Origin: a virus
Length of the DNA: 64,000 nucleotides
IMG/VR virus record: IMGVR_UViG_3300044511_000090
Location: 10,145 to 74,144 of that record
Reading direction: 5' to 3' (one strand)
The position numbers were made by a program, and so were the translations under genes. The first letter of the stretch is position 1, and each line of letters starts with the position of its first letter. The notes under the pieces were generated by a model that worked only from the letters and a program-made list of their open reading frames with translations, had not been told where the DNA came from and made no database searches. Shown one piece after another: positions 6,360 through 43,551 of the stretch.

Positions 6360-6610
6360 CAAATCCAAAGCCATGCCCTCGATGTGGCTACCCCATAAGT
6401 GTCTTTTCATGATACACAAGATGTGATGCGTGCCGTAGGGAATGGAGGCTTAATAATGTTGACACTATAAATGACGTAATAATCACTTGGAATGCGACAT
6501 CAGAACTGCTCAATGAGAAAGACGACCTTGAACGACGCCTCGAAGATGTTGCGGCCAAGATCAGGCTTGAAATTTCCAAGATCAACGCCAATAGGAATCT
6601 GAACACATGA
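6356..6610 (+). pseudogene. Lar-like zinc-ribbon gene interrupted by an in-frame TGA at 6410-6412
   Basis: MTNPKPCPRCGYPISVFS*YTRCDACRREW...ITWN; ATGA overlaps with both neighbours. Confidence 0.7.
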
Positions 6611-8088
6611 TCCTCTCAAAACAAGGCTTCCTTGACTGCATATCCGCCAATCCAGAAGAGGATGCGCCGTCGCTTGTCTACGCAGACTACCTTGAAGAAA
6701 AAGGCGACACTCAGGAATCTGAGGCGTTCAGACTCCTCGTGAGCGACCCGGAGATGTTTGGCATCAAGAACAGAACCAAGATCGATAAGCTGACAGACGT
6801 GGAGACGGCCAGATTCAAAACTTGGGTTGACTACTGGAAGGCAGTTGGATTATCGACGAAGCCGATTGACAGGGCGAAAGCCAAAAAAGCCGTGTGCTTG
6901 GCATACCAAAAAGCTGGCATGAATCCCACGTCCTTGTTCATTTTCCTTGATTCTCCTCTTGGCGGCGCGATTGCGGCGAGATTGTTCAGCCAGCCACTAC
7001 TGATTTCTACAGTTTTGGAGAATGTCGCCACTAAGGTTCGTAATCAGGTTTTTGGCAAGGTTGAGCAGCAGGTTGTGGGTCAGGTTGGGCAGCAGGTTAG
7101 GTATGATGTTATGAATCAGGTTTGGTTTAAGGTTGGTGAGCAGGTTTGTGATCAAGTTTGGGCCAAGGTTAATGCTCAGTCTGGCGATCAGGTTCGTGCC
7201 CATGTCCGTAATCAGGTCGGCGATCAGGCTTGGAATCAAGTTGTTGGACAGGTGCGTGATCAGGCTCGTGGCCGGGTTGGTTATGGGGCTGGGTCTCAGG
7301 CTTGGGATCAAATTTCCGATCAGGTTAGCGATCAGGTCTGGAAGGATGTCGGCGGGCAGGTTTGGAATCAGATTCGTGAGCAGGTGCTAGATCATGTTGG
7401 GCGTCAGGTTGATGATCAGATTTTTAATCAGATTAGCCAGCAGGTTTGGCCACAAGTTTCTCGTCAGGTTTCAAATCAGATTGCAACTAAGGTTGCTAAA
7501 CAGGTTGGGCGTCAGGTGCTAGATCATATTGGGCTTCAGGTTGAGAAGCAGGCTGGTGATTGGGCTTGGGATAAGGTTGTTGATCAGCCTTGCGATCAGG
7601 TCTGGATTAGTGCTCGTGATCAGGTTAGCGATCAAGTATGGAGGCAGGTTGGCTACAAGGTTCTGGATAAGGTCGGCGAGCAGGCTGGCGAGCAGCTTCG
7701 GGATGAGGTTAGGTATGGTGTTTTGAGTCAGGTTGAGAATGAGGTTTGGAATCAGGCTTGGAGTCAAGTTCTGAGCCGTGTTCGGTTTAATGTTGATGAT
7801 CAGGCCGATGATCAGAACTGGACCGGCATTGGCAAATGCGGATATGGTAGCCACGACGCCTCCTGGCTGTCGTTCTACAGCTACTTGTGGAAGCATGGGC
7901 TGGAGTGCTGCAACAAGCTGGAAGGGCTTTTCGAGGTCGCAAGAACGTGCGGCTGGTGGTGGCCATTCGAGAACGCCGTCATCATAACCGACCGGCCAAC
8001 GAAAATCTGCTTCAATGATCGTGGCTATCTGCACGGCTCACCGGCCATCTTGTACAAAGACGGCTTCTGCGTGAACGCAAACAACTGA
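6607..8088 (+). CDS. TIGR02996-domain + QVxx-repeat + truncated DUF6745-type protein
   Basis: FLDCISANPEEDAPSLVYADYLEEKG; STKPIDRAKA...DSP cap; about 260 aa of 4-residue QVxx periodicity; GSHDASWLSFY...CGWWWPFENAVIITDRP...LH. Confidence 0.88.
   Translation: MILSKQGFLDCISANPEEDAPSLVYADYLEEKGDTQESEAFRLLVSDPEMFGIKNRTKIDKLTDVETARFKTWVDYWKAVGLSTKPIDRAKAKKAVCLAYQKAGMNPTSLFIFLDSPLGGAIAARLFSQPLLISTVLENVATKVRNQVFGKVEQQVVGQVGQQVRYDVMNQVWFKVGEQVCDQVWAKVNAQSGDQVRAHVRNQVGDQAWNQVVGQVRDQARGRVGYGAGSQAWDQISDQVSDQVWKDVGGQVWNQIREQVLDHVGRQVDDQIFNQISQQVWPQVSRQVSNQIATKVAKQVGRQVLDHIGLQVEKQAGDWAWDKVVDQPCDQVWISARDQVSDQVWRQVGYKVLDKVGEQAGEQLRDEVRYGVLSQVENEVWNQAWSQVLSRVRFNVDDQADDQNWTGIGKCGYGSHDASWLSFYSYLWKHGLECCNKLEGLFEVARTCGWWWPFENAVIITDRPTKICFNDRGYLHGSPAILYKDGFCVNANN
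7030..7815 (+). repeat. Degenerate 12-nt coding tandem repeat (CAGGTT-N6)
   Basis: For example caggttgggcag caggttaggtat gatgttatgaat caggtttggttt. Confidence 0.9.
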
Positions 8089-8118
8089 AAAAATCTCCTA
8101 GTACCAGTGAGGCAGGCA

Positions 8119-8715
8119 ATGAAAATCGACATCTGCAAGGCGTACCAAATGGTCATGGACGCCGTTCTTCTGTTGAAGAACTCAGGCATCAAAACTGAAA
8201 TCACAGACTCAAGAGGCCGTGCGAATCCGCCACAACAGTACGTCGGTGACGGCTTCCTCAGCGTCGATAAGTGGGTCCATGTATCGTTCACGTTTAACAA
8301 CGAAGCAGAACGTCGGTCTGTGGCAGACTCCAAGCGAATGCTTGGCAAGTGGGGCATCACGTTCGACAGTGGCGGCGCAGGGAACCAGAGAGACTGGGAA
8401 ATAGACTGGTCGCTTCGTATCCAAGAAGACCCAGACAAACAACCACTCCAAGAAACTGTCGAAGAAGTCCTACTAGAACTAGGCGATCAAAAAGAATCGC
8501 CAGACGCAATAATCCCTGTTTTCCCGACGCCAGCCAAAGTGTTTTTCGACGGCCTCCAGTTGTGCATGAAAAACGACCATGACTTGGCCAGATCGTGGCA
8601 CGACAACATAGCCATGTGCGCACAAGACGAAGGAATGCCGCACGAGGCCGCGAATCGCGCGGCCGCAAGATTCATGAAACTCTGCTTCGGCGTTGACACC
8701 GGCAAGAAGTCCTAG
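8119..8715 (+). CDS. Hypothetical protein, probably a two-domain fusion
   Basis: GITFDSGG...RDWEIDWSL and SWHDNIAM...ANRAAARFMKLCFGVDT segments. Confidence 0.7.
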   Translation: MKIDICKAYQMVMDAVLLLKNSGIKTEITDSRGRANPPQQYVGDGFLSVDKWVHVSFTFNNEAERRSVADSKRMLGKWGITFDSGGAGNQRDWEIDWSLRIQEDPDKQPLQETVEEVLLELGDQKESPDAIIPVFPTPAKVFFDGLQLCMKNDHDLARSWHDNIAMCAQDEGMPHEAANRAAARFMKLCFGVDTGKKS

Positions 8716-8724
8716 TCCTCGGCA

Positions 8725-9093
8725 ATGAAAGGCAAGCCAATGACAGAAATCCTAAACGCCAGAATCAAGTCAACCAAACTCGGAATCCAAGAAGGACTTT
8801 TCACCGCATGGCTATCCTTTGAAGGCCGATCATGGGGATGCGTATTCGGCGGCATCTCATTCGACCGCTATTGCCCATACAAAGATGAAAGAGAGCCGGT
8901 TGCTATCGGCGCTAAGTGGATTGCGGCAGTCTTGAAAACACTTGGCGTCAATCTATGGGAAGACCTCGACGGCAAATACTGCCGGGTCGAGATTGACAGC
9001 GAAGGCAATATAAAAAGAATCGGCCACATCATCGAAGACCAGTGGTTCGATCAGACTTCCCTCTTAATTAACCAATTGCAAAAAACACCATGA
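8725..9093 (+). CDS. Conserved phage hypothetical protein
   Basis: NARIKSTKLG...GCVFGG...WEDLDGKYCRV...IGHIIEDQWF. Confidence 0.75.
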   Translation: MKGKPMTEILNARIKSTKLGIQEGLFTAWLSFEGRSWGCVFGGISFDRYCPYKDEREPVAIGAKWIAAVLKTLGVNLWEDLDGKYCRVEIDSEGNIKRIGHIIEDQWFDQTSLLINQLQKTP

Positions 9094-9154
9094 GGCTAAA
9101 AGAAGTCCTGCCTCTAGTCAACAACGTCGGCATCAACCGCTGAGGATTTAACCA

Positions 9155-9382
9155 ATGGCCAAGCAAAAAGACTCCTTCGCCTCTCGGCTAAAACTGCTCA
9201 TCAAAACTCGCGGCATCTCGCAACGAGAACTAGCCCGCAAGTCGGGCCTCGGCCACGCGGACATCAACCAGTACGTCAATGGCCGCAAACTCCCATCAAT
9301 CCCGTCGCTACTCAAAATCGCACAAGCACTAGAAGTCCTACCAGGAACCATGATCGACAGACTGGGGGTGGGGTGGGCCTAG
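9155..9382 (+). CDS. XRE/Cro-family HTH transcriptional regulator
   Basis: FASRLKLLIKTRGISQRELARKSGL...INQYVNGRKLPSIPSLLKIAQALEV. Confidence 0.92.
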   Translation: MAKQKDSFASRLKLLIKTRGISQRELARKSGLGHADINQYVNGRKLPSIPSLLKIAQALEVLPGTMIDRLGVGWA

Positions 9383-9620
9383 TAGTCCCCTACCACGAAA
9401 CACCCCACTTTCCGTAGTGTACACCAGTCCAGTATACCCCACCCCGCCACCCAGCCGGTGTACATATGTACACAAAAAAGGCATCTCAAATCGGCCCGAA
9501 AATGTACATCCGTACAGTATGTTCAATAACGATACATACGTTGTGCAATAACGATACACTGTCGGCAAGCGCGCACGGTCGCTATTCTAATTCCCATTAG
9601 TCAAACAAGAATGATAGAAT

Positions 9621-9649
9621 CGTAAGTCTATATGCCATATAGACTTACG
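9621..9649. promoter_or_regulatory. Perfect palindrome CGTAAGTCTATATG-C-CATATAGACTTACG, a candidate protein-binding site
   Basis: 14-bp perfect arms with a 1-nt centre, about 27 bp upstream of the sigma54-like promoter. Confidence 0.75.
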
Positions 9650-9675
9650 GCATTTTGCCGGAATTATTAGACGTT

Positions 9676-9692
9676 TTGGCATGGGTATTGCA
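9676..9692 (+). promoter_or_regulatory. Sigma54 (-24/-12) promoter TTGGCATGGGTATTGCA
   Basis: GG-N10-GC spacing matching TGGCA-N6-TTGCA, in the largest non-coding gap and ahead of the early gene array. Confidence 0.7.
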
Positions 9693-9866
9693 TTGTCTTT
9701 CCGTCAGAACGCATGGCACAATGCCCAGCGTTCACCGTCGCTGCCGGTTCACGGAGCGCGCAGTCCGGTCGAACGTTCGACCTAGTTTCGCACAATGTAC
9801 GTAACATATGTACACTGCGATTCGATTGTGATACTGCGCGCTTCAAGTTGCAGCATGGGGTTTATC

Positions 9867-10220
9867 ATGGCCAAGCTACTGGTTACCGAATTGTTCCCTA
9901 CTGGAGCATCGACCGACACATTCAGCGTACACACGGACAAAGGGTTGTGCCCTGTGACAATGCCAGCGTCTCATGCCGAAAGCGCAGAACAGCTGGCAGC
10001 TGAATATGACGGGCGCGATGGGAAGGCGTCTATCATCGTCAACGCTCCGGGTCTCATGTTTGTGAAGGGCGATAAATGCTTTCGAGATGCCAAGCAACAG
10101 AAAACAGCCGGGAAACATGTCGGTTCGATGATAGCAAAGTATTTGCGCGATGTGTCTAAAGAGCGTCAATCGGCTGCCCAGAAAATGGTTGAAGGCATCG
10201 ATGCCGTCAACGAACAGTAG
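9867..10220 (+). CDS. Hypothetical early protein
   Basis: ORF followed by a terminator. Confidence 0.65.
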   Translation: MAKLLVTELFPTGASTDTFSVHTDKGLCPVTMPASHAESAEQLAAEYDGRDGKASIIVNAPGLMFVKGDKCFRDAKQQKTAGKHVGSMIAKYLRDVSKERQSAAQKMVEGIDAVNEQ

Positions 10221-10234
10221 GGAAAACATCGTCC

Positions 10235-10266
10235 AAACGCTGGGCATTTTGCCCAGCGTTTTTTTT
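10235..10266 (+). terminator. Intrinsic terminator, repeat copy
   Basis: AAACGCTGGGCA-TTT-TGCCCAGCGTTT followed by a T tract. Confidence 0.8.
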
Positions 10267-10278
10267 GGAGTGTACACA

Positions 10279-10689: not shown

Positions 10690-10692
10690 TGC

Positions 10693-10724
10693 AAACGCTG
10701 GGCGTTTTGCCCAGCGTTTTTTTT
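10693..10724 (+). terminator. Intrinsic terminator, repeat copy
   Basis: AAACGCTGGGCG-TTT-TGCCCAGCGTTT followed by a T tract. Confidence 0.8.
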
Positions 10725-10770
10725 GCGCGCATTTTCTCGATTTCTCCCATCACCGTATAGGAGTAGTACG

Positions 10771-11653: not shown

Positions 11654-11657
11654 TACG

Positions 11658-11821: not shown

Positions 11822-12622
11822 ATGAAGATCAAAGACCTTGCATGGGAATTACATCCAGTCGCCATTGGTGGATACGTGTCTGTAGTAAACTTCCAGAACG
11901 GGTACGGAGCAAGCGTTTTGAAAGGCGGGCGGGGGTTGTATACCAAAAACCGCACATACGAAATAGGTGTGCTCCACAACGGCGAACTGGATTACGACAA
12001 TCCAGTTACTCCCGTCGATGTTCTCGGATTCTTGACCGAAAAAGAGGCCGACAAAGTGTTGGCGGCAATTGAAGCATTGCCGCCGAAAGAGGGGATGAGC
12101 AGGTTCATTAAAAGAATCTGCGAAAACCCGAAAGACGACTTCGCCTTCTTGGTTTATGCGGAATGGCTTGAGGACAACGGGAAAGAGGCGGAAGCCTTAG
12201 AAATAAGGCGAAACATCGGACGAGAAACGGAGTTCTGCGAAGACAGATTCTCGCCAAGCAGAAATATTAGCGAAATACTTGGCAAGACAATTGTTTCGAT
12301 TGACGGTAAGAGGGGCGACAAGGAAATCGAGATAAGGCTGCTCACCGGCGAAATATACATGCTCCAGCACTTTCAAGATTGCTGCGAGCACGTCTACGTC
12401 GAAGACATAGCCGGGAATTTTGAAGATTTGATTGGCCGGGTGGTAACAATGGCGGAAGAAAGTTCAAACCGCGAATTGCCCACAGATATGTACGGCTACA
12501 GCGACTCGCAAACCTGGACATTCTATCGTCTTGCATCCGTGAGGGGATATGTGACGATCAGATTCCTTGGAACATCCAACGGTTATTATTCGGAGCGGGT
12601 ATCATTCACAAGGACTCGATAA
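11822..12622 (+). CDS. Three-part fusion: phage domain + TIGR02996 domain + DUF7448-like domain
   Basis: NGYGASV...YEIGVL...DVLGFLT; FIKRICENPKDDFAFLVYAEWLEDNG; HFQDCCEHV...TWTFYRL...GTSNGYYSE. Confidence 0.82.
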   Translation: MKIKDLAWELHPVAIGGYVSVVNFQNGYGASVLKGGRGLYTKNRTYEIGVLHNGELDYDNPVTPVDVLGFLTEKEADKVLAAIEALPPKEGMSRFIKRICENPKDDFAFLVYAEWLEDNGKEAEALEIRRNIGRETEFCEDRFSPSRNISEILGKTIVSIDGKRGDKEIEIRLLTGEIYMLQHFQDCCEHVYVEDIAGNFEDLIGRVVTMAEESSNRELPTDMYGYSDSQTWTFYRLASVRGYVTIRFLGTSNGYYSERVSFTRTR

Positions 12623-12761
12623 CGAGGTCTTTGCCGATCATGGGTCGAGCGTCGTTTTTACCCCTTTGTTTTTTGCCCGATGGCGGGCAGGAGGTTATCA
12701 TGAAGTAACTTTTCCATGCCATCTATACTCGCCGCTAGGAGTAGCGTCCCTAGCGGCCAAT

Positions 12762-12830
12762 GGGCTTCCCGCATGGCGCGGACTTGCCGCTTGCAACGGC
12801 GATGATTGGGTTCGATTCCCTGGGGGTCCA
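12762..12830 (+). tRNA. Degenerate tRNA-Ala(UGC)-like element
   Basis: Acceptor GGGCTTC/GGGGTCC with G3:U70 and A73; anticodon loop CTTGCAA in a TGCCG/CGGCG stem; T-loop TTCGATT; shrunken D-arm; no CCA. Confidence 0.55.
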
Positions 12831-13001
12831 CTAGCGATTGGGCCGGGATGCGAAAGCAAGTGAACGACTATCGGCCATTGGCCGTAAACAATCGCGGCAG
12901 CAGCAACCGGGTATTGCCTTTGCCGATGATCGGCGCGTACGAGCCGTGAAGCGGCAACTGCCGGTGCTGCTGTCTTTTCAAACACAATTCGAGGAGCGTC
13001 A

Positions 13002-17858: not shown

Positions 17859-18560
17859 ATGATCGCTGTCGAGATTCCAAAACTTCAAAGTTTCGCAACT
17901 CTTGCCGAAACAATGGCAAGAGCCGAAGAGTTGATTGTCGAACTGTCAAAGAAAGGAGAAGAAGTCGTGGCTTCGGCAATTTACGAAGACTTTTTGACAA
18001 AGCCGAAGTCAAGAATGATCAAAGTGCTTGGCGTGTCTTCCCAGGCATCGAGGGAAGCTAACTCGGTCGCTCCAGGCGGGAAATGGTGTCTTCACCATGA
18101 AATGGTCGGCGGTGGCAGACATCGATTCATGGCGTGGTACTCCAGATACCTTATCTACGCTTGGGCAATGTTCCAATGCGAAGACGGTTTTGTGGCGATA
18201 GGGGTAGATTTTGAATCGATCAACGCTTACTACCGAACATGCCAAGGCTTCAACTACCTTGGACAAGGCGACATAGAAGGACTGTTTTCGGAGGAGTCTG
18301 ACCTTCAACTGTATGAGGAAATTTACGACGCATCGATGAAGATCAGGCCGCCAAGTCTGCCATTTGACGAAGCGTACCAACCGGCATTCTGCTTTGTGGC
18401 ATATCAGAGGCCGGACCTGTTCCACGAGGCAATCATGAAGTGCCGTGGAACGAAGGAAGGATACTTGGCTGATTGGCGAGTCAAGCATCTGTCCAAGGTT
18501 TCGGAAATGATCGGGCGTCCGGTCCCAGGTTTCGTAACAATCAGAACACAAGGAGCATGA
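17859..18560 (+). CDS. Hypothetical protein
   Basis: 233 aa; AAGGAG RBS; ATGA overlap with the ATPase. Confidence 0.7.
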   Translation: MIAVEIPKLQSFATLAETMARAEELIVELSKKGEEVVASAIYEDFLTKPKSRMIKVLGVSSQASREANSVAPGGKWCLHHEMVGGGRHRFMAWYSRYLIYAWAMFQCEDGFVAIGVDFESINAYYRTCQGFNYLGQGDIEGLFSEESDLQLYEEIYDASMKIRPPSLPFDEAYQPAFCFVAYQRPDLFHEAIMKCRGTKEGYLADWRVKHLSKVSEMIGRPVPGFVTIRTQGA

Positions 18561-20104
18561 CAATGTCGTTGATGATCGAAAAATTCAAGGCAGCACGGAA
18601 AGCCTCTGTGCCGCTTATCGCAATCACCACGCCGGACTATCCGGCAACAGTCAAGGCAGTGTCAGAGGCGATGAAAGAATATCCACTGATTCAGCATGAC
18701 CTGATTCGTGGGTACACAGCAGTCAATGAGGCTGGCCAAATGGCAATGGATGACCTTGGGCTGGACAAGCCAATTGATGAAAATGAACCAGAAATCACAA
18801 ACACAATCTCCAAAACTGGGAACCCGGCTGAGGCATTGTCGTTTGCGTTGCAATTGCCGGGAGACTCTATTTTGTTCTTCCACAATGCACAGAGATACAT
18901 CGGCAACGAAGCCGTGTGCCAAGCCATAATGAACCTGAGAAACCCATTCACAAATCCTCGCAGAACTCTGGTCATGCTGGCGACATCCATTGAACTGCCG
19001 CCAGAACTAATGCAAGATGTTCTGGTGCTTGATGAGCCGCTGCCGGACTCAAAACAACTGGCAGAGGTTACAAAAACCTGCTACACATCATTCAACAAGG
19101 AGCTTGCGAGCAAAGGGATGCCGACCCTCAAAATACCAGAGGGCCGAGACATGGAAGCAATCACAGACGCTCTGACAAGTCTGGCGGCGTTCCCGTGCGA
19201 GCAAGTCGTGTCAATGAGTCTGTCAAAAGATGGCATCGACACAAAATCCCTATGGGAGAGAAAATACAAGACAATCGAGCAGACTGATGGCTTGTTTGTC
19301 TACAGGGGGAATGAGACATTCGACGACATCGGCGGCGCTGAACAGATCAAGAAGCGTCTCACTCGGATTATGACCGGCAAGAAGCGATGGAGGTGCGTTG
19401 CTTGGGTTGACGAAATCGAGAAGTCGATTGCTGGTGCGACTGGTCCTGTAGGAGATAGCTCAGGAACTTCACAGTACGCACTTGGCAAAACTCTGACCGA
19501 GATGCAGGAGAATATGTGGGATGGGTTTTTCGGAGTTGGCCCAGGCGGAAGCGGCAAGAGCCTAATTGCCAAGGCTATCGGCAACACATTCGGCATCCCA
19601 ACTTTCATTATTGACTACGGCGCTATGCAGGCATCGCTTGTTGGCCAAAGCCAGCAGCGAGTTTCTGCCGTAATGAAAATACTCAAGGCTGTCGGCGGGG
19701 ACGGTGTGTTTTGGGTTGCGACGTGCAACAAGATCAAGGCCATTCCGCCAGAACTGAAGCGGCGATTCACGAAGGGCATCTACTACTTTGACCTTGCATC
19801 CGAAGAAGAGAAGAAAATGTTGTGGTCGATGTACTTGAAGAAGTACAACCTCGAAGAACAGAAGATGCCATGCGACGACGGGTGGACCGGGGCCAATATC
19901 GCCGCCTGTTGCCGCAACTCGTGTGAAGAAGGTGTCAGTATCTTGGAAGCCGCCGAGTCCATCGTGCCAATCACCAAGAGCGACCCTGAAGGACTCACAG
20001 AGCTTCGGACGATGGCAAATGGCAGATTCCTGAGCACAACGCATCCTGGAGCGTATGTGATTCCGAAAGTGGAGAAGAGGTCTTCCAGAAAAATGGAGGT
20101 TTAA
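18557..20104 (+). CDS. Ycf46-like AAA+ ATPase with a rearranged P-loop domain
   Basis: N-terminal inactive AAA-like domain (ELPPELM...LP); TFDDIGG; CVAWVDEIEK (Walker B) precedes GVGPGGSGKS (Walker A); VATCN sensor 1; IPPELKRRF; GWTGANI. Confidence 0.92.
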   Translation: MTMSLMIEKFKAARKASVPLIAITTPDYPATVKAVSEAMKEYPLIQHDLIRGYTAVNEAGQMAMDDLGLDKPIDENEPEITNTISKTGNPAEALSFALQLPGDSILFFHNAQRYIGNEAVCQAIMNLRNPFTNPRRTLVMLATSIELPPELMQDVLVLDEPLPDSKQLAEVTKTCYTSFNKELASKGMPTLKIPEGRDMEAITDALTSLAAFPCEQVVSMSLSKDGIDTKSLWERKYKTIEQTDGLFVYRGNETFDDIGGAEQIKKRLTRIMTGKKRWRCVAWVDEIEKSIAGATGPVGDSSGTSQYALGKTLTEMQENMWDGFFGVGPGGSGKSLIAKAIGNTFGIPTFIIDYGAMQASLVGQSQQRVSAVMKILKAVGGDGVFWVATCNKIKAIPPELKRRFTKGIYYFDLASEEEKKMLWSMYLKKYNLEEQKMPCDDGWTGANIAACCRNSCEEGVSILEAAESIVPITKSDPEGLTELRTMANGRFLSTTHPGAYVIPKVEKRSSRKMEV

Positions 20105-29727: not shown

Positions 29728-29919
29728 ATGAAAACAGAGTTGCAGATAATGTGCTCCGAATGCAAAGGCATTTTGTTTCCAGTCCAGACATCTCGGCTTG
29801 AGGACTACCTTGGGCACAGGGTCTACGAATGCGAAAAATGTCACCAACAGTGGAAATTTGTTCGAGAAGACGAGCCGTTCAAAACAGAAACAATACCACA
29901 TATGCCATTTGGCAGATAG
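29728..29919 (+). CDS. Zinc-ribbon protein
   Basis: CSEC...YECEKC. Confidence 0.65.
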   Translation: MKTELQIMCSECKGILFPVQTSRLEDYLGHRVYECEKCHQQWKFVREDEPFKTETIPHMPFGR

Positions 29920-29929
29920 GAGAATGAGA

Positions 29930-31048
29930 ATGTCATCGTGGTTTGAAATCGACAAGAACGGGCTTGCGGCAATCCTTGAGAGGCGCGGCAAAGCATGGGC
30001 CATCTTTGAGTTGATCCAGAACGCATGGGACTCTGGCGCTACTGAAGTCAAGATTTGGCTCAACCAATCTGAACGGCATCAACGTGAGGCTTTGCTAGTT
30101 GTTCAAGACAACGGCGAAGGTTTTGACAATCTTGACGACTCATTCACCATGTTTGGGAAGTCTCGTAGGGCAAGCGACCCTACAAAACGCGGCAGGTATT
30201 CTTTGGGAGAAAAACTCGTTCTTTCTATATGCAAAGAAGCGAGCATCGCAACCAGAACGGGTATGGTTGTGTTCTCGGAAAACAATAAGCGAAAGAAGTC
30301 AGAAACTTTCGATGGGACCAAGTTCTCATGTGTCATCAAAATGACTCACGCAGAGTATGAAGAAGTGTGCGAGCGAATGAAAGAACTGATTCCGCCAATC
30401 GTGACTTTCTTCAACGAACAGAGGATTGATGGAGGCACATTCGTTGCATCATTTGAGGCATCTTTGCCAACGGTGACTTGGGATGTCGAAGGCAATCCTG
30501 GGAAAAGCATTCGCAAGACGGAAATCGGCCTGTTTGAGATGCTGGCAGACGGCCAAGGCATGATCCTCGAAATGGGCATCCCCGTGGTCGAGTGCGAAAT
30601 ACCGTATCGCGTGAATGTGCTACAGAAAGTGCCGCTCAACATGGACAGAGACAATGTGACACCGGCATTTCTCAAAGCTGTCCAAGTTGCCGTCATGAAC
30701 AACATGGCATCGAAACTCCAAGAAGAAGATATTCGACAGCCTTGGGCACAGGAGGCACTTGGAGATGCCAGGGCAACTCCAGAGGCAGTCAAGGTATCGC
30801 TTGTCAAGCGATTCGGCGAACGAGCCGTTGTCGCAACACCCGGCGACCCGATTGCAAACGCAACAGCGTCTCAGGCTGGGTTCACGGTTATTCCTGGAGG
30901 CTCGTTGCCGCCAGGAATGTGGGCCAATGTTCGCAAGCACGAGCTGCTTCAGTCATCTGGCAAAGTTTTCCCGACTCCATCACCAGAGAAACTTGCAAAA
31001 GCGGCTGAAGAAGCTGGCGCTTGCCCGTCTTGTGGAAGAAGATTTTAA
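29930..31048 (+). CDS. GHKL (HATPase_c) ATPase
   Basis: ELIQNAWD (N box), VQDNGEGF (G1), RGRYSLGEK (G2), GT motif. Confidence 0.88.
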   Translation: MSSWFEIDKNGLAAILERRGKAWAIFELIQNAWDSGATEVKIWLNQSERHQREALLVVQDNGEGFDNLDDSFTMFGKSRRASDPTKRGRYSLGEKLVLSICKEASIATRTGMVVFSENNKRKKSETFDGTKFSCVIKMTHAEYEEVCERMKELIPPIVTFFNEQRIDGGTFVASFEASLPTVTWDVEGNPGKSIRKTEIGLFEMLADGQGMILEMGIPVVECEIPYRVNVLQKVPLNMDRDNVTPAFLKAVQVAVMNNMASKLQEEDIRQPWAQEALGDARATPEAVKVSLVKRFGERAVVATPGDPIANATASQAGFTVIPGGSLPPGMWANVRKHELLQSSGKVFPTPSPEKLAKAAEEAGACPSCGRRF

Positions 31049-32701: not shown

Positions 32702-34720
32702 ATGGGCAAGATTGTCAGACAGAAAAACAAAGCCGAAGGCGGAGTAACCGCACAAGAGAAACGGCTTTTTGCAAAGCACGTTCAATTGTGGACAGAACGC
32801 GCCTTCCGCACCGATCCAATCGACAGAGACAAGATAATCGAGGCGATTCATGGAATCTACGAATCTGCTGGCCTGAAAAGGCCACGAGTCGTTATTGTTC
32901 CAAGTCCGATTGTGATGGCTTTTGCTGGAGGCTTTGCATCTGTAATTTGGAAACACAAGAAAAACAGCCTTTCAGCCGTTGCCGCTACCGAATCTGTTGA
33001 CCTCAATGCAACACGAAATGCAACAAGAGACGCAACAAGAGACGCAACAAGAGAAGCAGCCGACTCCGAAACACTTGAAACTGCGATGAACGAGACAGAC
33101 TCTGAATCATTCTATGTTACACTAACTGCTGCCCGCGCCGCAACCGATGCCGCGACACGCGCCGTAGCCGACGATGCTGACCGTGATGAAATACGCAATG
33201 CAACAAGCGATGCGATACACTATGCGACCCGCTCCGAGGCCATCGCTGCAATCTACAATGCAGCCGACTCCGATACCACAGCCGCGACACGCAGAGCTAC
33301 TCGCATAGCGGCTATAAGTGCAATCCACGATGATACCGCCTCTGTGACACAGGATGCTGTCAGTGCCGCAACCGATGCCGCGATCCGAGATGCATCCGAT
33401 GATGAAATCAAAAATTCGACCGACCGCAAAACACGAGCCGAGGTACAAGCTGCTACCCTTTATTCGGTCTCATCTGCGACACGCGCTTCGACATACGCAG
33501 CGGCAGACGAGGCGATCAGCGATTTGACGCGCAAAGCAACCAGATATGCGGCCTACGAGCAAACACGATCAGCGACAGACGAGGTAACCCACACTTCGAC
33601 ATTCGTTGCGACCATAGGTGCTACCAGCGTTGCAACAGTCTTAGCGACATCCGATGTGACACGCAACGCGATCAATTCTTCTGTCCAAGGAGCGGCAGAT
33701 GCCGCGACACGCGCTGCCGCTGACGCAGCGACACAGGAGGCGATCTTTGTCACTACCAAATCCGCAACCCGCAATGAGATAAGCGCTGCGATCCGCACTG
33801 CAACATCACTTGAGACAGCTGCTGCGACCGACAAGGCGACCCGCGATGCGATCAGCAATGCAACCTATAAGGCGACCTTTGCTGAAACCGCTTCTAAGAC
33901 ATTTGATTTGGCAGACAACAAGACGCGATATGCTACTCACGATTATACCCGCAATGCGGCGAGCGAGGCGGCAGAAAAGACCATCATTGCGGCCTCCGTT
34001 GCTATCATCGATACTACCAAATCCGATGCCAGCGATTTTATCTCATTGGCAAAAGATATTCTTGGTGAAAACTGGAACGAAGGGATCAAAGAAGCGTCCA
34101 GATGGCAAGAATACTACCAAGGCGGCAATATGTGGTCATCATATGAATGCTACCTGACCGCCTGCCGAGACATCATTGGTCTTGATCTTGAAATACACAA
34201 AAAGTACACTCACTGGGAACAAGCAGCAATCAATGGCGGCTTCCGATTCATGCACAGCGAATTCTGCATGGTCTGTGATTTCCCAGAAATCTTGAAAGTC
34301 GAAAACAACGTGCCTCATTGTACAGATGGCCCATCCCATAGGTGGCGAGACGGCTTTTCTCTTTGGCACATTGGCGGAATCTTGGTTGATGAGCAAATTG
34401 TTATGCGGCCAGAAACGCAGACTGTTTCTCAAATCAACAATGAGCAAAATGCCGATGTCAAAGCAATCCGAATTCAAAGATACGGATGGGTTAGGTATCT
34501 TGAAGATATTGGGGCCAAGTGCATCCATCGCAGGCGAAATCTGGTAGAAGGAACAGTTGAAGCGTTGTTCGATGCTGGAGAGTTCGGGCGGAGGCTTGTG
34601 GCCACATGCCCGACATGGAGAGTGTTTTCTATGGGTGTTCCATCAAGTGTTGATGATTGTGAGCAAGCTCAAAATTGGCTTGCTGGCGAAAAACCGTTTC
34701 GAGTGTTGGCAAGAACCTAA
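32702..34720 (+). CDS. DUF6745-type protein with an Ala/Thr 4-residue-periodic core
   Basis: TDPIDRDK...PSP cap; about 350 aa of ATRxATxx; YQGGNMW...GGFRFMHSEFCMVCDFP...PHCTDGPSHRWRDG...INNEQNADV...CPT. Confidence 0.88.
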   Translation: MGKIVRQKNKAEGGVTAQEKRLFAKHVQLWTERAFRTDPIDRDKIIEAIHGIYESAGLKRPRVVIVPSPIVMAFAGGFASVIWKHKKNSLSAVAATESVDLNATRNATRDATRDATREAADSETLETAMNETDSESFYVTLTAARAATDAATRAVADDADRDEIRNATSDAIHYATRSEAIAAIYNAADSDTTAATRRATRIAAISAIHDDTASVTQDAVSAATDAAIRDASDDEIKNSTDRKTRAEVQAATLYSVSSATRASTYAAADEAISDLTRKATRYAAYEQTRSATDEVTHTSTFVATIGATSVATVLATSDVTRNAINSSVQGAADAATRAAADAATQEAIFVTTKSATRNEISAAIRTATSLETAAATDKATRDAISNATYKATFAETASKTFDLADNKTRYATHDYTRNAASEAAEKTIIAASVAIIDTTKSDASDFISLAKDILGENWNEGIKEASRWQEYYQGGNMWSSYECYLTACRDIIGLDLEIHKKYTHWEQAAINGGFRFMHSEFCMVCDFPEILKVENNVPHCTDGPSHRWRDGFSLWHIGGILVDEQIVMRPETQTVSQINNEQNADVKAIRIQRYGWVRYLEDIGAKCIHRRRNLVEGTVEALFDAGEFGRRLVATCPTWRVFSMGVPSSVDDCEQAQNWLAGEKPFRVLART

Positions 34721-37171: not shown

Positions 37172-39826
37172 ATGGCAGATGTGACCCTTTTTGAAGAAAA
37201 AGCGCCAATGCTTCTTGGTATCACTCCAAGAGAATACCAAATAGAGGCTCACGACAATTCGCTTCGTCTTTTTGGCGAAGGAATTCCAGGCGTACTTCTC
37301 AGGATGGCAACCGGGTCTGGCAAAACACTAACCGCGTCAATGCTGGCAAGGACATGGCTTGGAAGAGGCGACGATTACCGCGTGATGGTCATCAGTTATG
37401 AGACTCAGCTTGTTTGGCAGTTTGCCAAAGAAATCGAGAGTTTCATCGGTGTCCAGCCTGGAATAGAAATGGAGAAGAACAGAGCGGATTCGTCTAACAA
37501 AATCGTCGTTGCTTCTCGCCAGTCGCTTTTGCAGCACCCTGGGCCGACAAAAGAACAGGCCGATGAGTTGAAATCACTCGGCGTCACCGAACTCGGATGC
37601 TCAACGAAGAAGATGGCAGAATCGTACTTGAAGTATCTCAGGAAGGGGATAAGCGTTGATGATGTTTTGGCCGACATAGAGACAAAGAATCAACAACCAG
37701 AGGCATCGAACGGGAAATGGAGCAGGGTCCACAAGTTCGATTGGCGGCTCAACTGGCTTATATTTTCCGATGAATGCCACAGGTTCGCGTATCATCTCAA
37801 ATCGGTCAATCATTGGGTCGAATGGTTCGAGCAGAACCCAAACTCGAAGCGAGCAGGGCTTTCAGCCACACCTAAAAGATCAGATGGCGTGTCTATCGGA
37901 AGCCGGATGTTCCCCGGCATCGCAATAGACTACCCACTGTTCAGCAGAGAAGGCAGATGCGCACTGAGAGACGGATACGCCGTGCCGTATGTCCAAAAAT
38001 ACATCGAACTTGAAGGCGTTGATTTCAAGCAAATCAAGAGGGTGACAGAAGGAGGCGACTTCGATGAATCAGCGCTTGAAAAAGCCCTCATGGAAGACAA
38101 AGAACTTGCCGGGCTCGTTGATCCGCTTCTTGACATGGTTGGCGATAGGCCGACTTTGATTTTCAATCCAGGCGTTGAGATGGCAAAGAAGGTTGCCAGA
38201 TTCATCAATGCCAGATGCGAAGCAAAATGCGAATGCGGACAAATACGCTGGTATCCCAAGCAACTTGTCGGGGACGGCGCAACTTGCGAGTGCGGAAGAT
38301 TCATCATCCAAGAAAACATCACAAAGAGCGGCGATCAGGCCGTCGAATTGGATGGCGAAGTCCCACACCAAGTCAGAGATGAGTATTACAGAAAGTTTGA
38401 AGAAAAGAAGTTCCAGTTTTTGTCAGTATGTGGCCTGTGCATTGCTGAAGGAACTTTGATATTGACAGATGTTGGCGATGTTCCAATTGAAGACGTTACA
38501 ACCCACATGAAGGTTTGGGACGGGGTTGAGTTTGTTTCCCATGATGGTGTCATATTCAATGGATTTAAGCCGGTCATAGAATATGCCGGATTAAGAGCCA
38601 CTGAAAACCACAAAGTATTGACAAAAAGCGGGTGGGAAACAATAGCAGAATGCAAAAAAAATGGAACGCCGATTGTTATTGGGCAGCTTATGAAGTTGCC
38701 AGTCCAGTACAGCAAGGAATCCGATTTTGTATTCAGAGACCCAGAACAACATGAACAACAGCCTGAACATGCTACAGAACAATCGAACGTCTATGACATC
38801 TTGAACGCTGGTCCTAGACATCGTTTTACAGCCAATGGGCTTCTTGTATCAAATTGCAGAGAAGGCTTTGATGTCCCATCAATCGCTTGCGTAGCCGTCT
38901 TCAGGCCAGTCAGCAAGAAGGCGTCATCACTTGCAGAGCAAATGAAGGGGCGAAGTTGCAGGCCGCTCAGGGAAATAGCGAGAATCCTTCACACTCTTCC
39001 AACGCCAGAAGACAGAAGGAAGCTGATCGAAGAAAGTGAAAAGCCCAATGCGCTTATAGTTGACTTAGTAGGAATAACCGGCCTTGCAGACTGTGCTTCG
39101 ACTGTTGAAATCTATGCCGAAGGTCTTCCAGACGAAGTAATCAAACGTGCAGAAGACATTCTATCCGAGAAGGGGAAAGACGAAGAATTCGATGTTCAAG
39201 AGGCAATTGATCAGGCAGAAAAGGAAGACCGAGAGGCCAAAGAGAAAATTCGGAAAGAACGAGAAGAGTCTGAGCGACGGGCCAAAGAAGAATTCGAGAG
39301 AAGGGCTCAAGCGGACCCGCGTGCCAAATACACGACCTATGACAAGGGTATTGGCTCTCAGTACGATCCAAACGAGGCAAGCGAAGGCCAATACAACTTA
39401 ATCAAGTCTCTTGGGATGGAAATAGGCGACGTTATCAGCAAGCGGAAGGCCGGAAGAATAATCAATATGCTCAAACAGCGGACAAACCCATCAGAAGTTG
39501 CGTACAAGAACGGCATTTCTTCATGGGAACCGACTCCGCCTAGCCCTAAGCAATCATACGCCTGCAAAAGACTTGGATACGATGTATCGACTTCATACGA
39601 AGCCAGCCAGATACTATCAGCGGCAAGGAAGCCGCAAGAATTCAAAGCCAAGAAACTGGCTGATATCCAGAATGCCAAGAACGACGGCGATCTAACAGCG
39701 GTCGGCATGGATATGAAACTCGTCAGGAGAATATGCCCGCCAGATGTGTGGGCTGAGGTTGTTTCGGCTGGCGCAAGAAAGAGGCAAGAACTCAAGAGTA
39801 TTAATTCTGACGATATTCCAGAATAA
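37172..39826 (+). CDS. Superfamily 2 DExH helicase containing a mini-intein
   Basis: PREYQ, ATGSGKT, DECH, LSATPKRSD, EGFDVP, QMKGRSCR. Confidence 0.95.
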   Translation: MADVTLFEEKAPMLLGITPREYQIEAHDNSLRLFGEGIPGVLLRMATGSGKTLTASMLARTWLGRGDDYRVMVISYETQLVWQFAKEIESFIGVQPGIEMEKNRADSSNKIVVASRQSLLQHPGPTKEQADELKSLGVTELGCSTKKMAESYLKYLRKGISVDDVLADIETKNQQPEASNGKWSRVHKFDWRLNWLIFSDECHRFAYHLKSVNHWVEWFEQNPNSKRAGLSATPKRSDGVSIGSRMFPGIAIDYPLFSREGRCALRDGYAVPYVQKYIELEGVDFKQIKRVTEGGDFDESALEKALMEDKELAGLVDPLLDMVGDRPTLIFNPGVEMAKKVARFINARCEAKCECGQIRWYPKQLVGDGATCECGRFIIQENITKSGDQAVELDGEVPHQVRDEYYRKFEEKKFQFLSVCGLCIAEGTLILTDVGDVPIEDVTTHMKVWDGVEFVSHDGVIFNGFKPVIEYAGLRATENHKVLTKSGWETIAECKKNGTPIVIGQLMKLPVQYSKESDFVFRDPEQHEQQPEHATEQSNVYDILNAGPRHRFTANGLLVSNCREGFDVPSIACVAVFRPVSKKASSLAEQMKGRSCRPLREIARILHTLPTPEDRRKLIEESEKPNALIVDLVGITGLADCASTVEIYAEGLPDEVIKRAEDILSEKGKDEEFDVQEAIDQAEKEDREAKEKIRKEREESERRAKEEFERRAQADPRAKYTTYDKGIGSQYDPNEASEGQYNLIKSLGMEIGDVISKRKAGRIINMLKQRTNPSEVAYKNGISSWEPTPPSPKQSYACKRLGYDVSTSYEASQILSAARKPQEFKAKKLADIQNAKNDGDLTAVGMDMKLVRRICPPDVWAEVVSAGARKRQELKSINSDDIPE
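38438..38854 (+). mobile_element. Mini-intein (139 aa, no endonuclease) in helicase motif V
   Basis: Block A CIAEGTLI, block B ATENHKV, blocks F/G VYDILNAGPRHRFTANGLLVSN, then Cys+1; removal restores VCGL-CREGFDVP. Confidence 0.92.
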
Positions 39827-39847
39827 TAGGCGCGCGCAGCGCCTATT
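39825..39847. repeat. Dispersed palindrome, copy 4
   Basis: aataggcgc gcgca gcgcctatt at the helicase stop. Confidence 0.9.
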
Positions 39848-39860
39848 TTGAGGGCAACCG

Positions 39861-41410
39861 ATGAAAAGCAGAGAAGAGTTTGTGAAAACGTGGAAATTCC
39901 ACATAACAGGGCTGTCGCTTTTTGGGTATGTGAGCGAGTCACGCGACGGCCAAATGGAACGATTGAAAAGGGTCCACGAAATGCCAGTCGAGTCGGAAAA
40001 ACTTCTGGCAAGCATGTACGATTGGCTAACAGGAGCGAAAAATGGGAAAGACTCAAAACCAGCGTGAAATCATTATCATCGCTATGAAGGACAGAGCGCC
40101 TTTTGTTGACGGGGTGTATTTGGGCAAGAACTTCGAGAGAGTCGAATTGTCTGTTGTCTGTCGAGCATCTGAGCCGACCGATCTTCAGGGATTTGAGTTC
40201 ATAAGCCAATCAAGACTTGGCGATAATGTGTAGTTTGGATAACCCATTGGAGGTTCATAATGACTTTTATTTTGAAGCCAACTCGTCGAGAGGTCATAAA
40301 TTTCCTTGTGGATCGTTTTGTGAAAAAATTGGAAGCAGACGCCGATGCTGCACAATTGATTGCGGTTCAGCAGGACAAACGAACTCGGAACTTGATAGAA
40401 AAACAAAAAAACATCACTCTCAAAGCCGGTCGAAAAGCATTAGCCAGAAAAATCGGCATGATCAAAAAAGCTATCGGCGAACGATTTACCGTCCATGAGA
40501 AGATTGATGAAATCGAAAACCAGAGGTTGTACACAATCTCGTTCTATTGCCATCTAACAAAGACGATTTCTCATTCTGCCTCATGCCGCAAGGAGATTGA
40601 TGAAATTGATGCCGAAATTGCCCAATCGAACAAGAAATACCAAGAACTGCAAAACCATGCTGCTTCCATTAAAAGACGAGCAAGCAGACTAGCGTATTGT
40701 GACGAAAAAAGCAGGATCGATTTGTTGAGGCTCTTGATAGAAAAACTACCGGACAAAGCTGAGCCACTTGTTGATAGCCTAATAAACATGATCCAAAAAT
40801 GCTCAGAAACTGAACAAGCGAGTCAGTCTGGGCAATGAAGTTATCCTGACGAACCAACGAAACCGAGTAGCATAACCAATGACTGGAGCGGACAGATGGA
40901 GAAGTACATCGATTTCATCGACGCCGGTTCCAGCGAAAGCGGCAAGACAAAGCTATGGCATGTCGTGCCGAAACAAGGCGACGGCTCGCCAATCGGCTTG
41001 ATCCACTGGTACGGTCCATGGCGCAAGTATTGCTTCAGCCCGCACCATGACACGATCTACGAACAGGTTTGTTTGCGTGACATCGCGGACTTCTGCGAAC
41101 AGCAAACAACGACCCAAAAGAACGGCAACAGCAGATTCCCAATTAGCAGCAGGAGCTTGTAATGCCCACGACCTGCACGCGCTGCAACCGCCGCACGCGG
41201 AACTTGAGCCGGGCCGGGAACGCATACTACTGCCCAGAATGCCGGATCGAGTGGCGGCAGAAGCTAGTCGAGGGCGGACGCAGGGCGGCGAAGAAACGGG
41301 CGGCTGCACCAGAGCCGACGATGGCCGAACTGGACGCGCTGATTGCGAGGCAGATGCGGAATCTGCCCCGGTGGTGGAGCAAGTGCAGAGCGTTTGCGAA
41401 AGGGGACTGA
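39861..41410 (+). other. Hypothetical genes (39861-40067, 40042-40233, 40260-40838, 40896-41162, 41162-41410)
   Basis: Co-oriented ORFs; 40896 carries the common phage motif GKT..W.V...IG.I.W...WRKYCF. Confidence 0.65.
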
Positions 41411-41467
41411 CCCAGGCCCAGCGTTTGGGCATCACGGCGGCGGGACTGACACGAAAGGAGATGGGGG

Positions 41468-42358
41468 ATGACCCAGCGCATCGGCCCCCACGAGTTGCAC
41501 TGCGGCGATGCCATCACGGTCCTGCGCCAGATGCCGGAACGGTATGTGTCGCTGACCGTGACGAGCCCGCCGTATGAAGATGCCCGCACCTACGGCGTCG
41601 GGTTCCGACTCAAAGGACAGGATTGGGTCGATTGGCTTATCCCGATCATTGTCGAATGCTGCCGTGTAACTGACGGGCTTGTGCTTGTGAACGCAGCCGG
41701 GAAGGTGAACGACTTCCAGTACACGCCGGTCATGGAATGGCTTGTCACAGACTTGACCCGTCAGCATGGGATCGTATGCGGACCGGCCCCATACGTTTAC
41801 CGGCGCGTCGGCATCCCTGGCAGCGGCGGTCAGCATTACCACCGGCGCGATTGGGAACCAGTCTATGCGTTCGCGTTGCCGGATCGACTGCCGTTGAGGT
41901 GGAGCGATAACACGGCAACCGGCCACGCGATCCCGGCTCGTATCGCTGCGGTGTCACCACGAGGGACAAACGGGGCAAGAAATCATGGCTTTTATTCGTC
42001 ACCGGATATTGCCAACGCCGGGAACGTAATCAATGAAACGTACACTGCCGCGCAGGTCCAGACCATACTTGACGGCGGCGACGTAATCGACTGCAAGGTT
42101 GGCGGCGGGCTCATGGGGCATCCGTTGGCAAGCGAGAACGAAGCGCCAATGTCGCTCACGCTCGCTACATGGCTCGTGCGCAGTTACGCGCCACCGGGCG
42201 GGCGTGTGCTCGATCCGTTCATGGGCAGCGGGACTACGCTTCATGCGTGCATGGACACCGGCCGGATCGGTGTAGGGATTGACTTACGCGAATCGCAAAT
42301 CGAACTAACCCGGCGACGGCTACAGTCCGTGACGCCGACGATGTTCGATGAGGCTTGA
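41468..42358 (+). CDS. DNA amino-methyltransferase (beta class, SPPY; probably N4-cytosine)
   Basis: VTSPPY precedes VLDPFMGSGTT. Confidence 0.92.
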   Translation: MTQRIGPHELHCGDAITVLRQMPERYVSLTVTSPPYEDARTYGVGFRLKGQDWVDWLIPIIVECCRVTDGLVLVNAAGKVNDFQYTPVMEWLVTDLTRQHGIVCGPAPYVYRRVGIPGSGGQHYHRRDWEPVYAFALPDRLPLRWSDNTATGHAIPARIAAVSPRGTNGARNHGFYSSPDIANAGNVINETYTAAQVQTILDGGDVIDCKVGGGLMGHPLASENEAPMSLTLATWLVRSYAPPGGRVLDPFMGSGTTLHACMDTGRIGVGIDLRESQIELTRRRLQSVTPTMFDEA

Positions 42359-42362
42359 CAAT

Positions 42363-42572
42363 GAAAGGACGGTGACGGGATGGCGAAACCAACAACAGAA
42401 TTCGTGCCAGACCAATTGCGAACTGTTGCCACGACCAGGACGACTGGCTTTCTCGATCTACGATACGCGCCAAGACGGTTCGTTCCGAAGTTGTCAACCG
42501 ACGACGATTTGTCATGGCTGAAACCAAACAGACTTCGATTGACGGCATCAAAGAAAGGACGGTGACGGGATG
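42363..42572 (+). repeat. 20-bp direct repeat GAAAGGACGGTGACGGGATG (42363-42382, 42553-42572) flanking ORF 42380-42565
   Basis: Exact match; each copy includes an RBS and ATG. Confidence 0.9.
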
Positions 42573-42899
42573 AATCTTGCAGATGAGATTGTAGGTGGTT
42601 TTCGCGGGCTTGCGGATGCATTGAAAGCCAGCTGCGCCGCCTTTGAATCCCGCGTCATGCGCTGGCCAGCGCCGGGCGTGGACAGCACGCCGACTGAGCC
42701 GGGATGGTATCGGCTGCGGAATGGGGCTCACAATCACGGGGAAAAAATTAACGACGGCATTTACTTGATTGAGATGCGAAACAATCATTTGTCTGTTTGG
42801 GACGGCAGGTGTTGGGCATGGCACGCTTCTAATATTCGCGGTGAGTGGGTTCGTATCCCGTTCCCGCTGGAACCGGAGGCCGCGAACGATGCTAAGTGA
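42570..42899 (+). CDS. Hypothetical protein
   Basis: PTEPGWY...GEW.RIP.P motif. Confidence 0.65.
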   Translation: MNLADEIVGGFRGLADALKASCAAFESRVMRWPAPGVDSTPTEPGWYRLRNGAHNHGEKINDGIYLIEMRNNHLSVWDGRCWAWHASNIRGEWVRIPFPLEPEAANDAK

Positions 42900-43551
42900 C
42901 CGTCCACTCCTTGACGCGATTATAGCCGCCCCGGACCAGGACGCGCCGCGACTGGTGTACGCAGACTGGCTTGAAGAGAACGGCGGTGGGGAACGCGCTG
43001 AGCTGATCCGGTTGCAGATTGAGGCCGAGAATCGGGGATGTCTGTGCTCGCGCAAAATCATTAGATTCGCTGGACGAGTCCTTAATCGTGTCCAAATCCT
43101 AATGCAAAGAAGGACTACGTGCAGATCGTGCCAACTTCAATTGCAAATCAAAGACTTGATAAACAAATTGATGACAAAAGGCGATGAAGAATTCGTCATT
43201 CAAAAATCAAGCCATTACGACCTGATCATCTCGCGCGGCTTCATCGAGGCCGTCGAATGCGACTGGCGCTGGTTCGCGGACAACGCCGACAAGATGCTGG
43301 CGCAGAACCCGGTACGGCAGGTCCGGCTTACGAGTTGGCCATCGTTGCAGCTTTGTAGACTACCATTTACGTACTGGTTTACTGGCATGCCTTTTGATCG
43401 TGAAAAAGCTGGAGAAGTGGCAATAAAAATGTTGCGCAGTGGTGGACAGTGGCCGGGAACCAGATGGAACTACACTCTCCTATTCACATTCCTTTTACTT
43501 CGCGCCTGCTGGCCAACCGTCAAAGCGTGGAAGTTCCCTGCCAGCCGATGA
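42889..43551 (+). CDS. TIGR02996-domain protein, host-type architecture
   Basis: LLDAIIAAPDQDAPRLVYADWLEENG..ERAELIRLQI; SRGFIEAVEC...NPVRQVRLT. Confidence 0.9.
   Translation: MLSDRPLLDAIIAAPDQDAPRLVYADWLEENGGGERAELIRLQIEAENRGCLCSRKIIRFAGRVLNRVQILMQRRTTCRSCQLQLQIKDLINKLMTKGDEEFVIQKSSHYDLIISRGFIEAVECDWRWFADNADKMLAQNPVRQVRLTSWPSLQLCRLPFTYWFTGMPFDREKAGEVAIKMLRSGGQWPGTRWNYTLLFTFLLLRACWPTVKAWKFPASR

Follow-up and report, generated by a model that had tools for sequence, protein, structure and literature searches.

TIGR02996 head domains on three proteins of a tailed phage, two of them grafted onto generic accessory bodies, as a possible protein-contact module

The virus record IMGVR_UViG_3300044511_000090 is a linear sequence of 74,144 bp, of which we analysed bases 10145-74144, a stretch of 64,000 nucleotides referred to below as the window. 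Three proteins encoded in it, P0001, P0002 and P3, carry a small TIGR02996 domain, here called the head. Judged by sequence comparison, P0001 and P0002 join a more diverged form of the head to generic phage accessory bodies, of the DUF6745 and DUF7448 families respectively, that normally lack it, and both of these fusions are shown to recur in metagenomes. P3, on its sequence, is an ordinary member of a family resident in both phages and hosts, in which the head is followed by what we call the RGF module, rather than a head attached to a foreign body. The initial annotation had described all three proteins as carrying the head on unrelated partners; this stands for P0001 and P0002, and was given up for P3, which is homologous over its whole length to the N-terminal module of the host proteins. 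With confidence a little short of even, we propose that the head may be a protein-contact module that brings phage proteins of different body to one or more common partners in a Gemmata-type cell.

The motif that had marked the three sites proved to be a TIGR02996 match at each of them. In a search with the NCBIfam hidden Markov model (HMM) TIGR02996.1 (hmmscan, curated cut-off 29.05 bits), all three segments exceed the cut-off (scores in Table 1). A six-frame search of the whole record returned exactly three matches, all on the + strand and all at the head positions of Table 1, and the same search found none in 14 control genomes. The head lies at the N-terminus of P0001 and P3 and is internal in P0002, unless the ATG at 12095 is the start of that protein. 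At the protein level, the three heads are about 40-52% identical to one another. A recent duplication of the head inside this phage was considered and ruled out, as the three DNA copies share little except conserved codons. By Pfam at E<=1, P0001, P0002 and P3 contain no F-box, CARD, PYD or other known adaptor domain and no leucine-rich repeat (LRR) or other Pfam repeat; the four-residue-periodic region of P0001 is of a non-LRR kind. PADLOC defence models matched none of the three heads, and touched only the repeat region of P0001, weakly (17 and 15 bits). We found no mention of TIGR02996, DUF6745 or DUF7448 in the literature (8 million full texts), and no solved structure of the head.

Could these hits be artefacts, whether motif matches by chance, remnants in decay, or host sequence wrongly binned as viral? 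P0001 and P0002 exceed the cut-off by only 4-10 bits, and the public gene call for P3 lacks the head. Set against this are E-values of 4e-10 to 5e-19, the empty controls, intact reading frames, homologues of the same architecture, phage hallmark genes on the same contig, and the signature of selection, so that we regard an artefact as extremely improbable. Phage heads are under purifying selection and are not decaying, because the proportion of nonsynonymous differences (pN) is below that of synonymous differences (pS) in 98% of 1081 pairs drawn from 47 phage heads (median pN 0.37, median pS 0.68, near saturation), and because conserved residues are encoded by two to six synonymous codons (six each for L22 and R21, four each for P15 and A25). 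As synonymous sites are saturated, we give these proportions and no quantitative dN/dS. Decay of the phage heads, which had been named at the outset as grounds for abandoning the idea, was thus not seen in these 47 copies.

P0001 starts at an ATG with an in-frame stop four codons 5' of it. Behind the head, it consists of a DUF6745-family body, the partner expected from the initial annotation, whose N-terminal cap aligns both to residues 23-75 of a 672-aa DUF6745 paralogue encoded elsewhere in the window and to head-bearing relatives. The head is absent from all 57 near-length homologues found with a word-indexed search and from all seven DUF6745 relatives examined in IMG/VR; both sets start at about residue 57 of P0001. 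The view that the P0001 fusion is unique was nevertheless dropped. An exhaustive phmmer search, with residues 1-131 of P0001 as the query, yielded about 14 clusters among the 150 best representatives in which a single alignment runs across the head and the DUF6745 N-terminal cap, and four of these (P0302, P0308, P0358 and P0364) lie above both curated cut-offs, for TIGR02996 and for DUF6745. As aligned, the layout of these proteins is a head, a linker of 10-40 residues, and then the usual start of the family. P0001 therefore shares with DUF6745 (PF20530; PHROG 31813) the N-terminal cap, the periodic middle and the C-terminal match, and differs from most of the family in its head, which occurs only in a minority subfamily.

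In P0002, the head is flanked by two phage domains, as had been noted, with phrog_4074 on its N-terminal side and a DUF7448 domain on its C-terminal side. The C-terminal 112 residues hold the invariant DUF7448 motif H-x-Q-D-C-C-E. The phrog_4074 match covers its profile up to position 89 of 90 and stops five residues short of M92, and M92 in turn corresponds to the start of three stand-alone head-DUF7448 proteins (P0181, P0246 and P0185; 167-206 aa, head N-terminal), which were found among 119 homologues. Because phrog_4074 ends before M92 and the stand-alone proteins start there, P0002 has the look of two units fused in frame. The possible internal ATG at 12095 is present, at the point where the stand-alone proteins begin, and may also be used as a start. 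DUF7448 is found at no fewer than 555 loci in IMG/VR (at least; usually as a stand-alone protein of 120-200 aa), and none of the best 80 of these loci carries a head. Compared with this family (PF24240; PHROG 2650), P0002 matches the whole profile and adds both the head and the in-frame phrog_4074 domain. In a Foldseek search, the DUF7448 part of the P0002 model showed a weak resemblance to small immunity proteins of polymorphic toxins and type VI secretion system effectors (8owu_D, prob 0.96, E 0.066; 3wa5_B), which we record as a lead only.

The start of P3 is the ATG at 42889, which overlaps the stop of the upstream open reading frame (ORF) 42570-42899 (ATGCTAAGTGA); it replaces a TTG at 42769 that had been considered as the start. 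The deposited gene call (P0004, 126 aa, about 43171-43551) begins at residue 95 and misses both head and linker. An opposite-strand ORF of 275 aa (42234-43061) overlaps the P3 region and is probably spurious. P3 aligns over its full length (alignment A1) with proteins of 200-270 aa that comprise a head, a variable and often Cys-rich linker, the segment 'RRGFIE...P..V.LT' and a W-P-x-I-x-x-x-L-P tail, its own tail ending in W-P-T-V...F-P. P3 has the RGF segment, the 'P..V.LT' segment and the tail, and P0001 and P0002 lack the RGF module. Many of the 366 homologues of P3 are called 'TIGR02996 family', and many run on into LRR Pfam domains. No Pfam family was found in P3 (E<=1), and tblastn against the GenBank phage records of INPHARED gave no match; in the ESM Atlas, P3 adjoins unnamed clusters, one of which has Uroviricota (tailed phages) as its commonest taxon.

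The closest known counterparts of P3 are the TIGR02996 proteins of Gemmataceae ('rpt_mate_G_obs'; Gemmata, Fimbriiglobus, Frigoriglobus, Limnoglobus and the Tuwongella-like CJuql4), which belong to the same HMM family as all three phage heads. With P3 they share an N-terminal module of about 150 residues, made up of head, linker, RGF hairpin and 'P..V.LT' strand (30-36% identity over 65-99% of the length), whereas with P0001 and P0002 they share the head only. The RGF segment had been called typical of host paralogues, and an RGF HMM indeed matches 77 of 108 Gemmatales copies. The host proteins usually extend head and RGF module by LRRs (LRR_6, LRR_4, LRR_8), while the phage proteins do not.

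Structure prediction is consistent with a small helical unit. In an AlphaFold2 model of P3 built from a 94-sequence alignment (mean predicted local distance difference test score, pLDDT, 80; predicted template modelling score, pTM, 0.76), the head forms three helices (residues 5-13, 19-30 and 34-48) at pLDDT 91-97. Residues 1-49 superpose on single tetratricopeptide repeat (TPR) units of many solved proteins at 1.4-2.0 A over 48-49 residues with Z 3.4-4.7 (VIA-align, exhaustive), and low-scoring Pfam TPR matches agree with this. The head thus weakly resembles one and a half TPRs, with the difference that it is a single unit and builds no solenoid. Foldseek searches of PDB and BFVD gave no significant match for either the P3 or the P0002 model. 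In the P0002 model (pTM 0.52), the head helices span residues 90-101, 106-118 and 122-134, the DUF7448 domain is predicted at pLDDT >94, and the linker between them (136-142) falls below pLDDT 50. Because of this low-confidence linker and the low pTM, the model suggests that head and DUF7448 are separate modules, like beads on a string. TIGR02996 is shown to be a mobile module of about 45 residues and three helices, with a weak likeness to one and a half TPRs, that passes from one protein to another.

How widely does this module travel in phages? We examined 20 IMG/VR records recruited by a scan with alignment A1, of which 19 have a TIGR02996 match above the cut-off and 15 have two or more. 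Clustering of the bodies behind the head placed 32 of 43 phage copies with P3, and a few more could be added by eye. Other copies are attached to different proteins, including an FGE-sulfatase (SUMF1-like) domain (L106:6278-7339:+ in record G019, 179 bits), a glycine-rich protein and a coiled-coil protein; two proteins have the head at the C-terminus, and stand-alone heads of 44-73 aa also occur. The head is therefore portable, as had been supposed: the survey of partners in phages and metagenomes yielded at least five unrelated bodies (RGF module, DUF6745, DUF7448, FGE-sulfatase and others), with the head in N-terminal, internal or C-terminal position. One record, G017 (L051-L056; IMGVR_UViG_3300048599_000435, 109,753 bp, with terminal repeats), is a complete phage with a terminase (212 bits) and a phage helicase; it has eight heads above the cut-off, or 16 when all matches at E<=0.01 are counted, spread across the genome and in some cases beside the terminase. 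The terminase frame of this phage is 1378 aa long with HNH-like segments, and may hold an intein or an insertion.

Larger arrangements were also seen. Seven proteins of 2.5-3.7 kaa (P0300-P0305 and P0323; Logan/NCBI contigs of 16-120 kb) contain 8-13 head-like units spaced 150-400 residues apart and no RGF module; they could be genuine giant proteins, or else arrays of genes joined by read-through. In P0300, a stretch weakly similar to 2H-phosphoesterase or Acb1 (22 bits, under the cut-off) is present as well. P0392, P0315 and P0354 (700-790 aa) have two heads per chain, with LRRs in between in P0392.

Such multiplicity might mean that heads associate with one another and would thereby gather P0001, P0002 and P3, and likewise the paralogues of other phages, into one phage complex that involves no host partner. 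TPR-like units often stack, several copies per phage are usual (15 of the 20 records), and the giant proteins would present 8-13 units on one chain. However, the head is present as a single copy in five of the 20 records, including the complete G006 as well as G008 (64% completeness), and the three heads of this phage differ from one another both in overall sequence, as given above, and at the conserved arginines described next. We consider an assembly confined to phage proteins very unlikely.

Two arginines differ between heads coupled to an RGF module and many heads on other bodies. R21 is arginine in all 109 RGF-coupled copies (32 phage, 77 host), and is replaced by S in P0001, by F in P0002 and by Q, I, V or L in several other swapped forms; on a small curated set, its association with body type has a Fisher p of 2.5e-8. 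Among RGF-coupled copies, 74 of 77 from hosts and 21 of 32 from phages have the arginine R36; almost every copy on another body has lost it. D26, L28 and Y24 are retained throughout. The statement that R21 is lost in every swapped form proved too strong, since most head-DUF6745 proteins retain it; loss of R36 is more general. We infer that R21 and R36 may serve an interface between head and RGF module, or a function tied to the latter, and that grafted heads would keep the fold and not necessarily the same contacts as the canonical head.

These observations bear on the main rival explanation, according to which the head helps its own body to fold or to stay stable, as a cap with no partner, and has spread by easy, exon-like shuffling among paralogues. 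Invariance of R21 next to an RGF module, and its loss in several swapped forms, is what an intramolecular contact would predict; moreover, head and RGF module of P3 are modelled as one compact body, and a long repeat region follows the head of P0001. Yet a cap would have to serve bodies of unrelated fold (the beta-rich DUF7448, FGE-sulfatase, DUF6745) from N-terminal, internal and C-terminal positions, most DUF6745 and DUF7448 proteins fold in its absence, stand-alone heads exist, and the linker between head and DUF7448 in P0002 is predicted with low confidence. On balance, we judge a purely structural cap to be somewhat unlikely.

The initial annotation had described TIGR02996 as greatly expanded in Gemmata-like planctomycetes, and this is borne out. 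In a cellular scan with one genome per species, more than 471 loci were confirmed, the best 80 of which are nearly all from Gemmataceae/Gemmatales (Gemmata, Fimbriiglobus, Frigoriglobus, Limnoglobus, Urbifossiella and isolate CJuql4). Head matches in five Gemmataceae genomes number 20-79 each, or 3-8.5 per Mb; the density is 45 per Mb over 21 phage records (the 20 above and this one) and 40 per Mb in this phage, in records that were selected for having the head. Several metagenome-assembled genomes labelled 'uncultured Alcaligenaceae' (L134, L146, L149, L153, L155, L158 and others) contain many Gemmatales-type TIGR02996 genes, and their labels are probably wrong.

For this domain of about 45 residues, 47 copies from phages and 108 from hosts were placed in a quick maximum-likelihood tree. 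The tree implies 15 changes between phage and host labels, compared with about 40 in shuffles, and none of 500 shuffles was as low. Well-supported branches are few (21 of 151), and these force only two label changes; none of the heads of P0001, P0002 and P3 is placed with support. Because of the contrast between 15 and about 40 changes, and even though the supported branches force just two, the phage heads are, as far as these sequences go, partly separate lineages rather than fresh captures. The proposal to count captures from the host by phylogeny did not succeed, as so short a domain fails to resolve either the number or the direction of transfers.

That phage and host copies cluster apart beyond chance would also fit a decoy. 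Host TIGR02996-LRR proteins could form a sensing or immune-like network that signals via the head, and LRR-less phage proteins would then act as dominant negatives, as viral CARD-only and pyrin-only proteins do. Phage copies of head plus RGF module regularly lack the LRR body of many host copies, and the phage heads are multi-copy and diversified. However, PADLOC gave no match and the host family has no known function; short head-bearing open frames (210-300 aa) are numerous in host genomes too, so that the LRR-less form is not shown to be phage-specific; and P0001 and P0002 have real bodies, hence are no decoys. We therefore think a decoy role quite improbable.

The genomic context is that of a phage. 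The window is part of a tailed phage, for which CheckV estimates the completeness of the record at 67%. Among the products of its genes are a helicase of phage type (phrog_16, 145 bits), two DNA methyltransferases and one tape-measure-like protein, and a terminase-like frame lies in the same record just outside the window. All three head-bearing genes are read from the + strand and fall within the non-structural region (6.6-46 kb), and tail-like genes lie on the - strand past 47 kb. The same early region encodes an AAA ATPase (PF00004, 51 residues only) and a GHKL/HATPase_c-type ATPase (18473-20104 and 29798-31048). Two near-identical perfect hairpins of 27 nt (10235-10261 and 10693-10719; AAACGCTGGGC[A/G]TTTTGCCCAGCGTTT), which lie at gene ends upstream of P0002 and each precede a T run, resemble a dispersed palindrome of the terminator type. 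The likely hosts are probably Gemmata-like planctomycetes, judging from the family of the heads.

Table 1. Positions of the head-bearing genes, their domains and other features in the window.
Feature	Position	Strand	Evidence or remark
P0001, 493 aa: TIGR02996 head and DUF6745-family body with long xQVx four-residue-periodic middle	6607-8088	+	ORF, translation
P0001 head, residues 5-43; R21->S, R36->E	6619-6735	+	39.2 bits, E 4.3e-10
P0001 DUF6745-family N-terminal cap, residues ~57-128	6775-6990	+	alignment to L192-L198; head-less relatives begin here
P0001 diverged 12/24-bp periodic repeats, encoding xQVx stalk-like middle	6994-7806	+	Tandem Repeats Finder, 64-83% matches
P0001 Pfam DUF6745 match, residues 413-491	7843-8079	+	54.3 bits (gathering 27)
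P0002, 266 aa: phrog_4074, TIGR02996 head and DUF7448	11822-12622	+	public gene call identical, 266 aa
P0002 phrog_4074 domain, residues 22-86	11885-12079	+	profile match
P0002 internal ATG (M92)	12095-12097	+	aaagagggg directly 5'
P0002 head, residues 94-129; R21->F, R36->E	12101-12208	+	33.1 bits, E 3.5e-8
P0002 DUF7448/phrog_2650 beta-rich domain, residues 151-262	12272-12607	+	88.7 bits (gathering 27), profile 2-104 of 104
tRNA-Ala (TGC)	12761-12831		directly downstream of P0002
Second DUF6745 protein, 672 aa, head-less	32702-34720	+	DUF6745 52.2 bits; no TIGR02996 in six-frame search
P3, 220 aa: canonical head, variable Cys-containing linker, RGF module, W-P-x-[IV]...[LF]-P tail	42889-43551	+	whole-length alignment A1
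P3 head, residues 4-46, canonical	42898-43026	+	68.0 bits, E 4.5e-19; AlphaFold2 pLDDT 91-97
P3 RGF module, residues 108-150: beta hairpin 110-124, helix 126-139, strand 144-147	43210-43338	+	alignment A1; AlphaFold2 model; RGF HMM
tRNA-Met (CAT)	49106-49179	-	

Based on these data, we favour, tentatively, a role of the head as a protein-protein contact module. Through it, phage proteins with different bodies would converge on one or more shared partners inside a Gemmata-type cell, which could be the host TIGR02996 proteins themselves or a factor that those proteins bind. Generic phage accessory proteins would in this way be fitted to this host group. Several points weigh against such a role. 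First, no binding partner of the TIGR02996 head is known or predicted, and since the P0001 and P0002 heads lack both R21 and R36, they may not bind the partner of the canonical head. Second, the likeness to TPRs is weak: Z-scores of 3.4-4.7 are in the range where helical models often match by chance, and the score with Pfam TPR_15, 15.2 bits, falls below the cut-off of 26.2. Third, the pTM of the P3 model would also be expected if the head simply formed part of one compact fold. Fourth, the distribution of the TIGR02996 family is the sole basis of the host call, and the GC content of this phage (about 51% in the window) is lower than that of several other head-bearing phages. Finally, the 20 comparison records were chosen through the head itself, which makes the copy densities conditional on having one.

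The initial annotation had suggested a docking tag by which the phage mimics or hijacks a host network; from the sequences, a docking tag, a decoy or a hijack mechanism is plausible. A more specific proposal takes the head for a docking module peculiar to the lineage of Gemmata-type cells, which phages might use as an address label on DUF6745, DUF7448 and FGE-sulfatase proteins and, together with LRR-less head-only paralogues, to redirect or block a host network. This we consider unlikely as formulated. If true, it would be a bacterial counterpart to viral F-box/PRANC or CARD-only strategies. Poxvirus ankyrin/PRANC F-box-like proteins and viral CARD-only or pyrin-only proteins form multigene families in which viruses have adopted a docking domain of their hosts. 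By analogy, they too combine a small, conserved domain, common to them and an expanded host family, with variable bodies in several copies per virus genome; they differ in that the three phage proteins showed no F-box, CARD or PYD homology in Pfam at E<=1.

Gemmataceae genomes each hold tens of TIGR02996 genes, which places this family with their largest sets of paralogues. To our knowledge, no function has been assigned to TIGR02996 proteins, and phages of Gemmataceae are essentially unstudied. Because the head is kept under selection, occurs in multiple copies and has repeatedly been grafted onto the same otherwise head-less accessory proteins, it offers a handle on both the host family and its phages. 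The binding target of the phage heads should point to the role of the host TIGR02996 family. Likewise, DUF6745 and DUF7448 are very common phage proteins, and a host-specific adaptor on them would inform how those families act.

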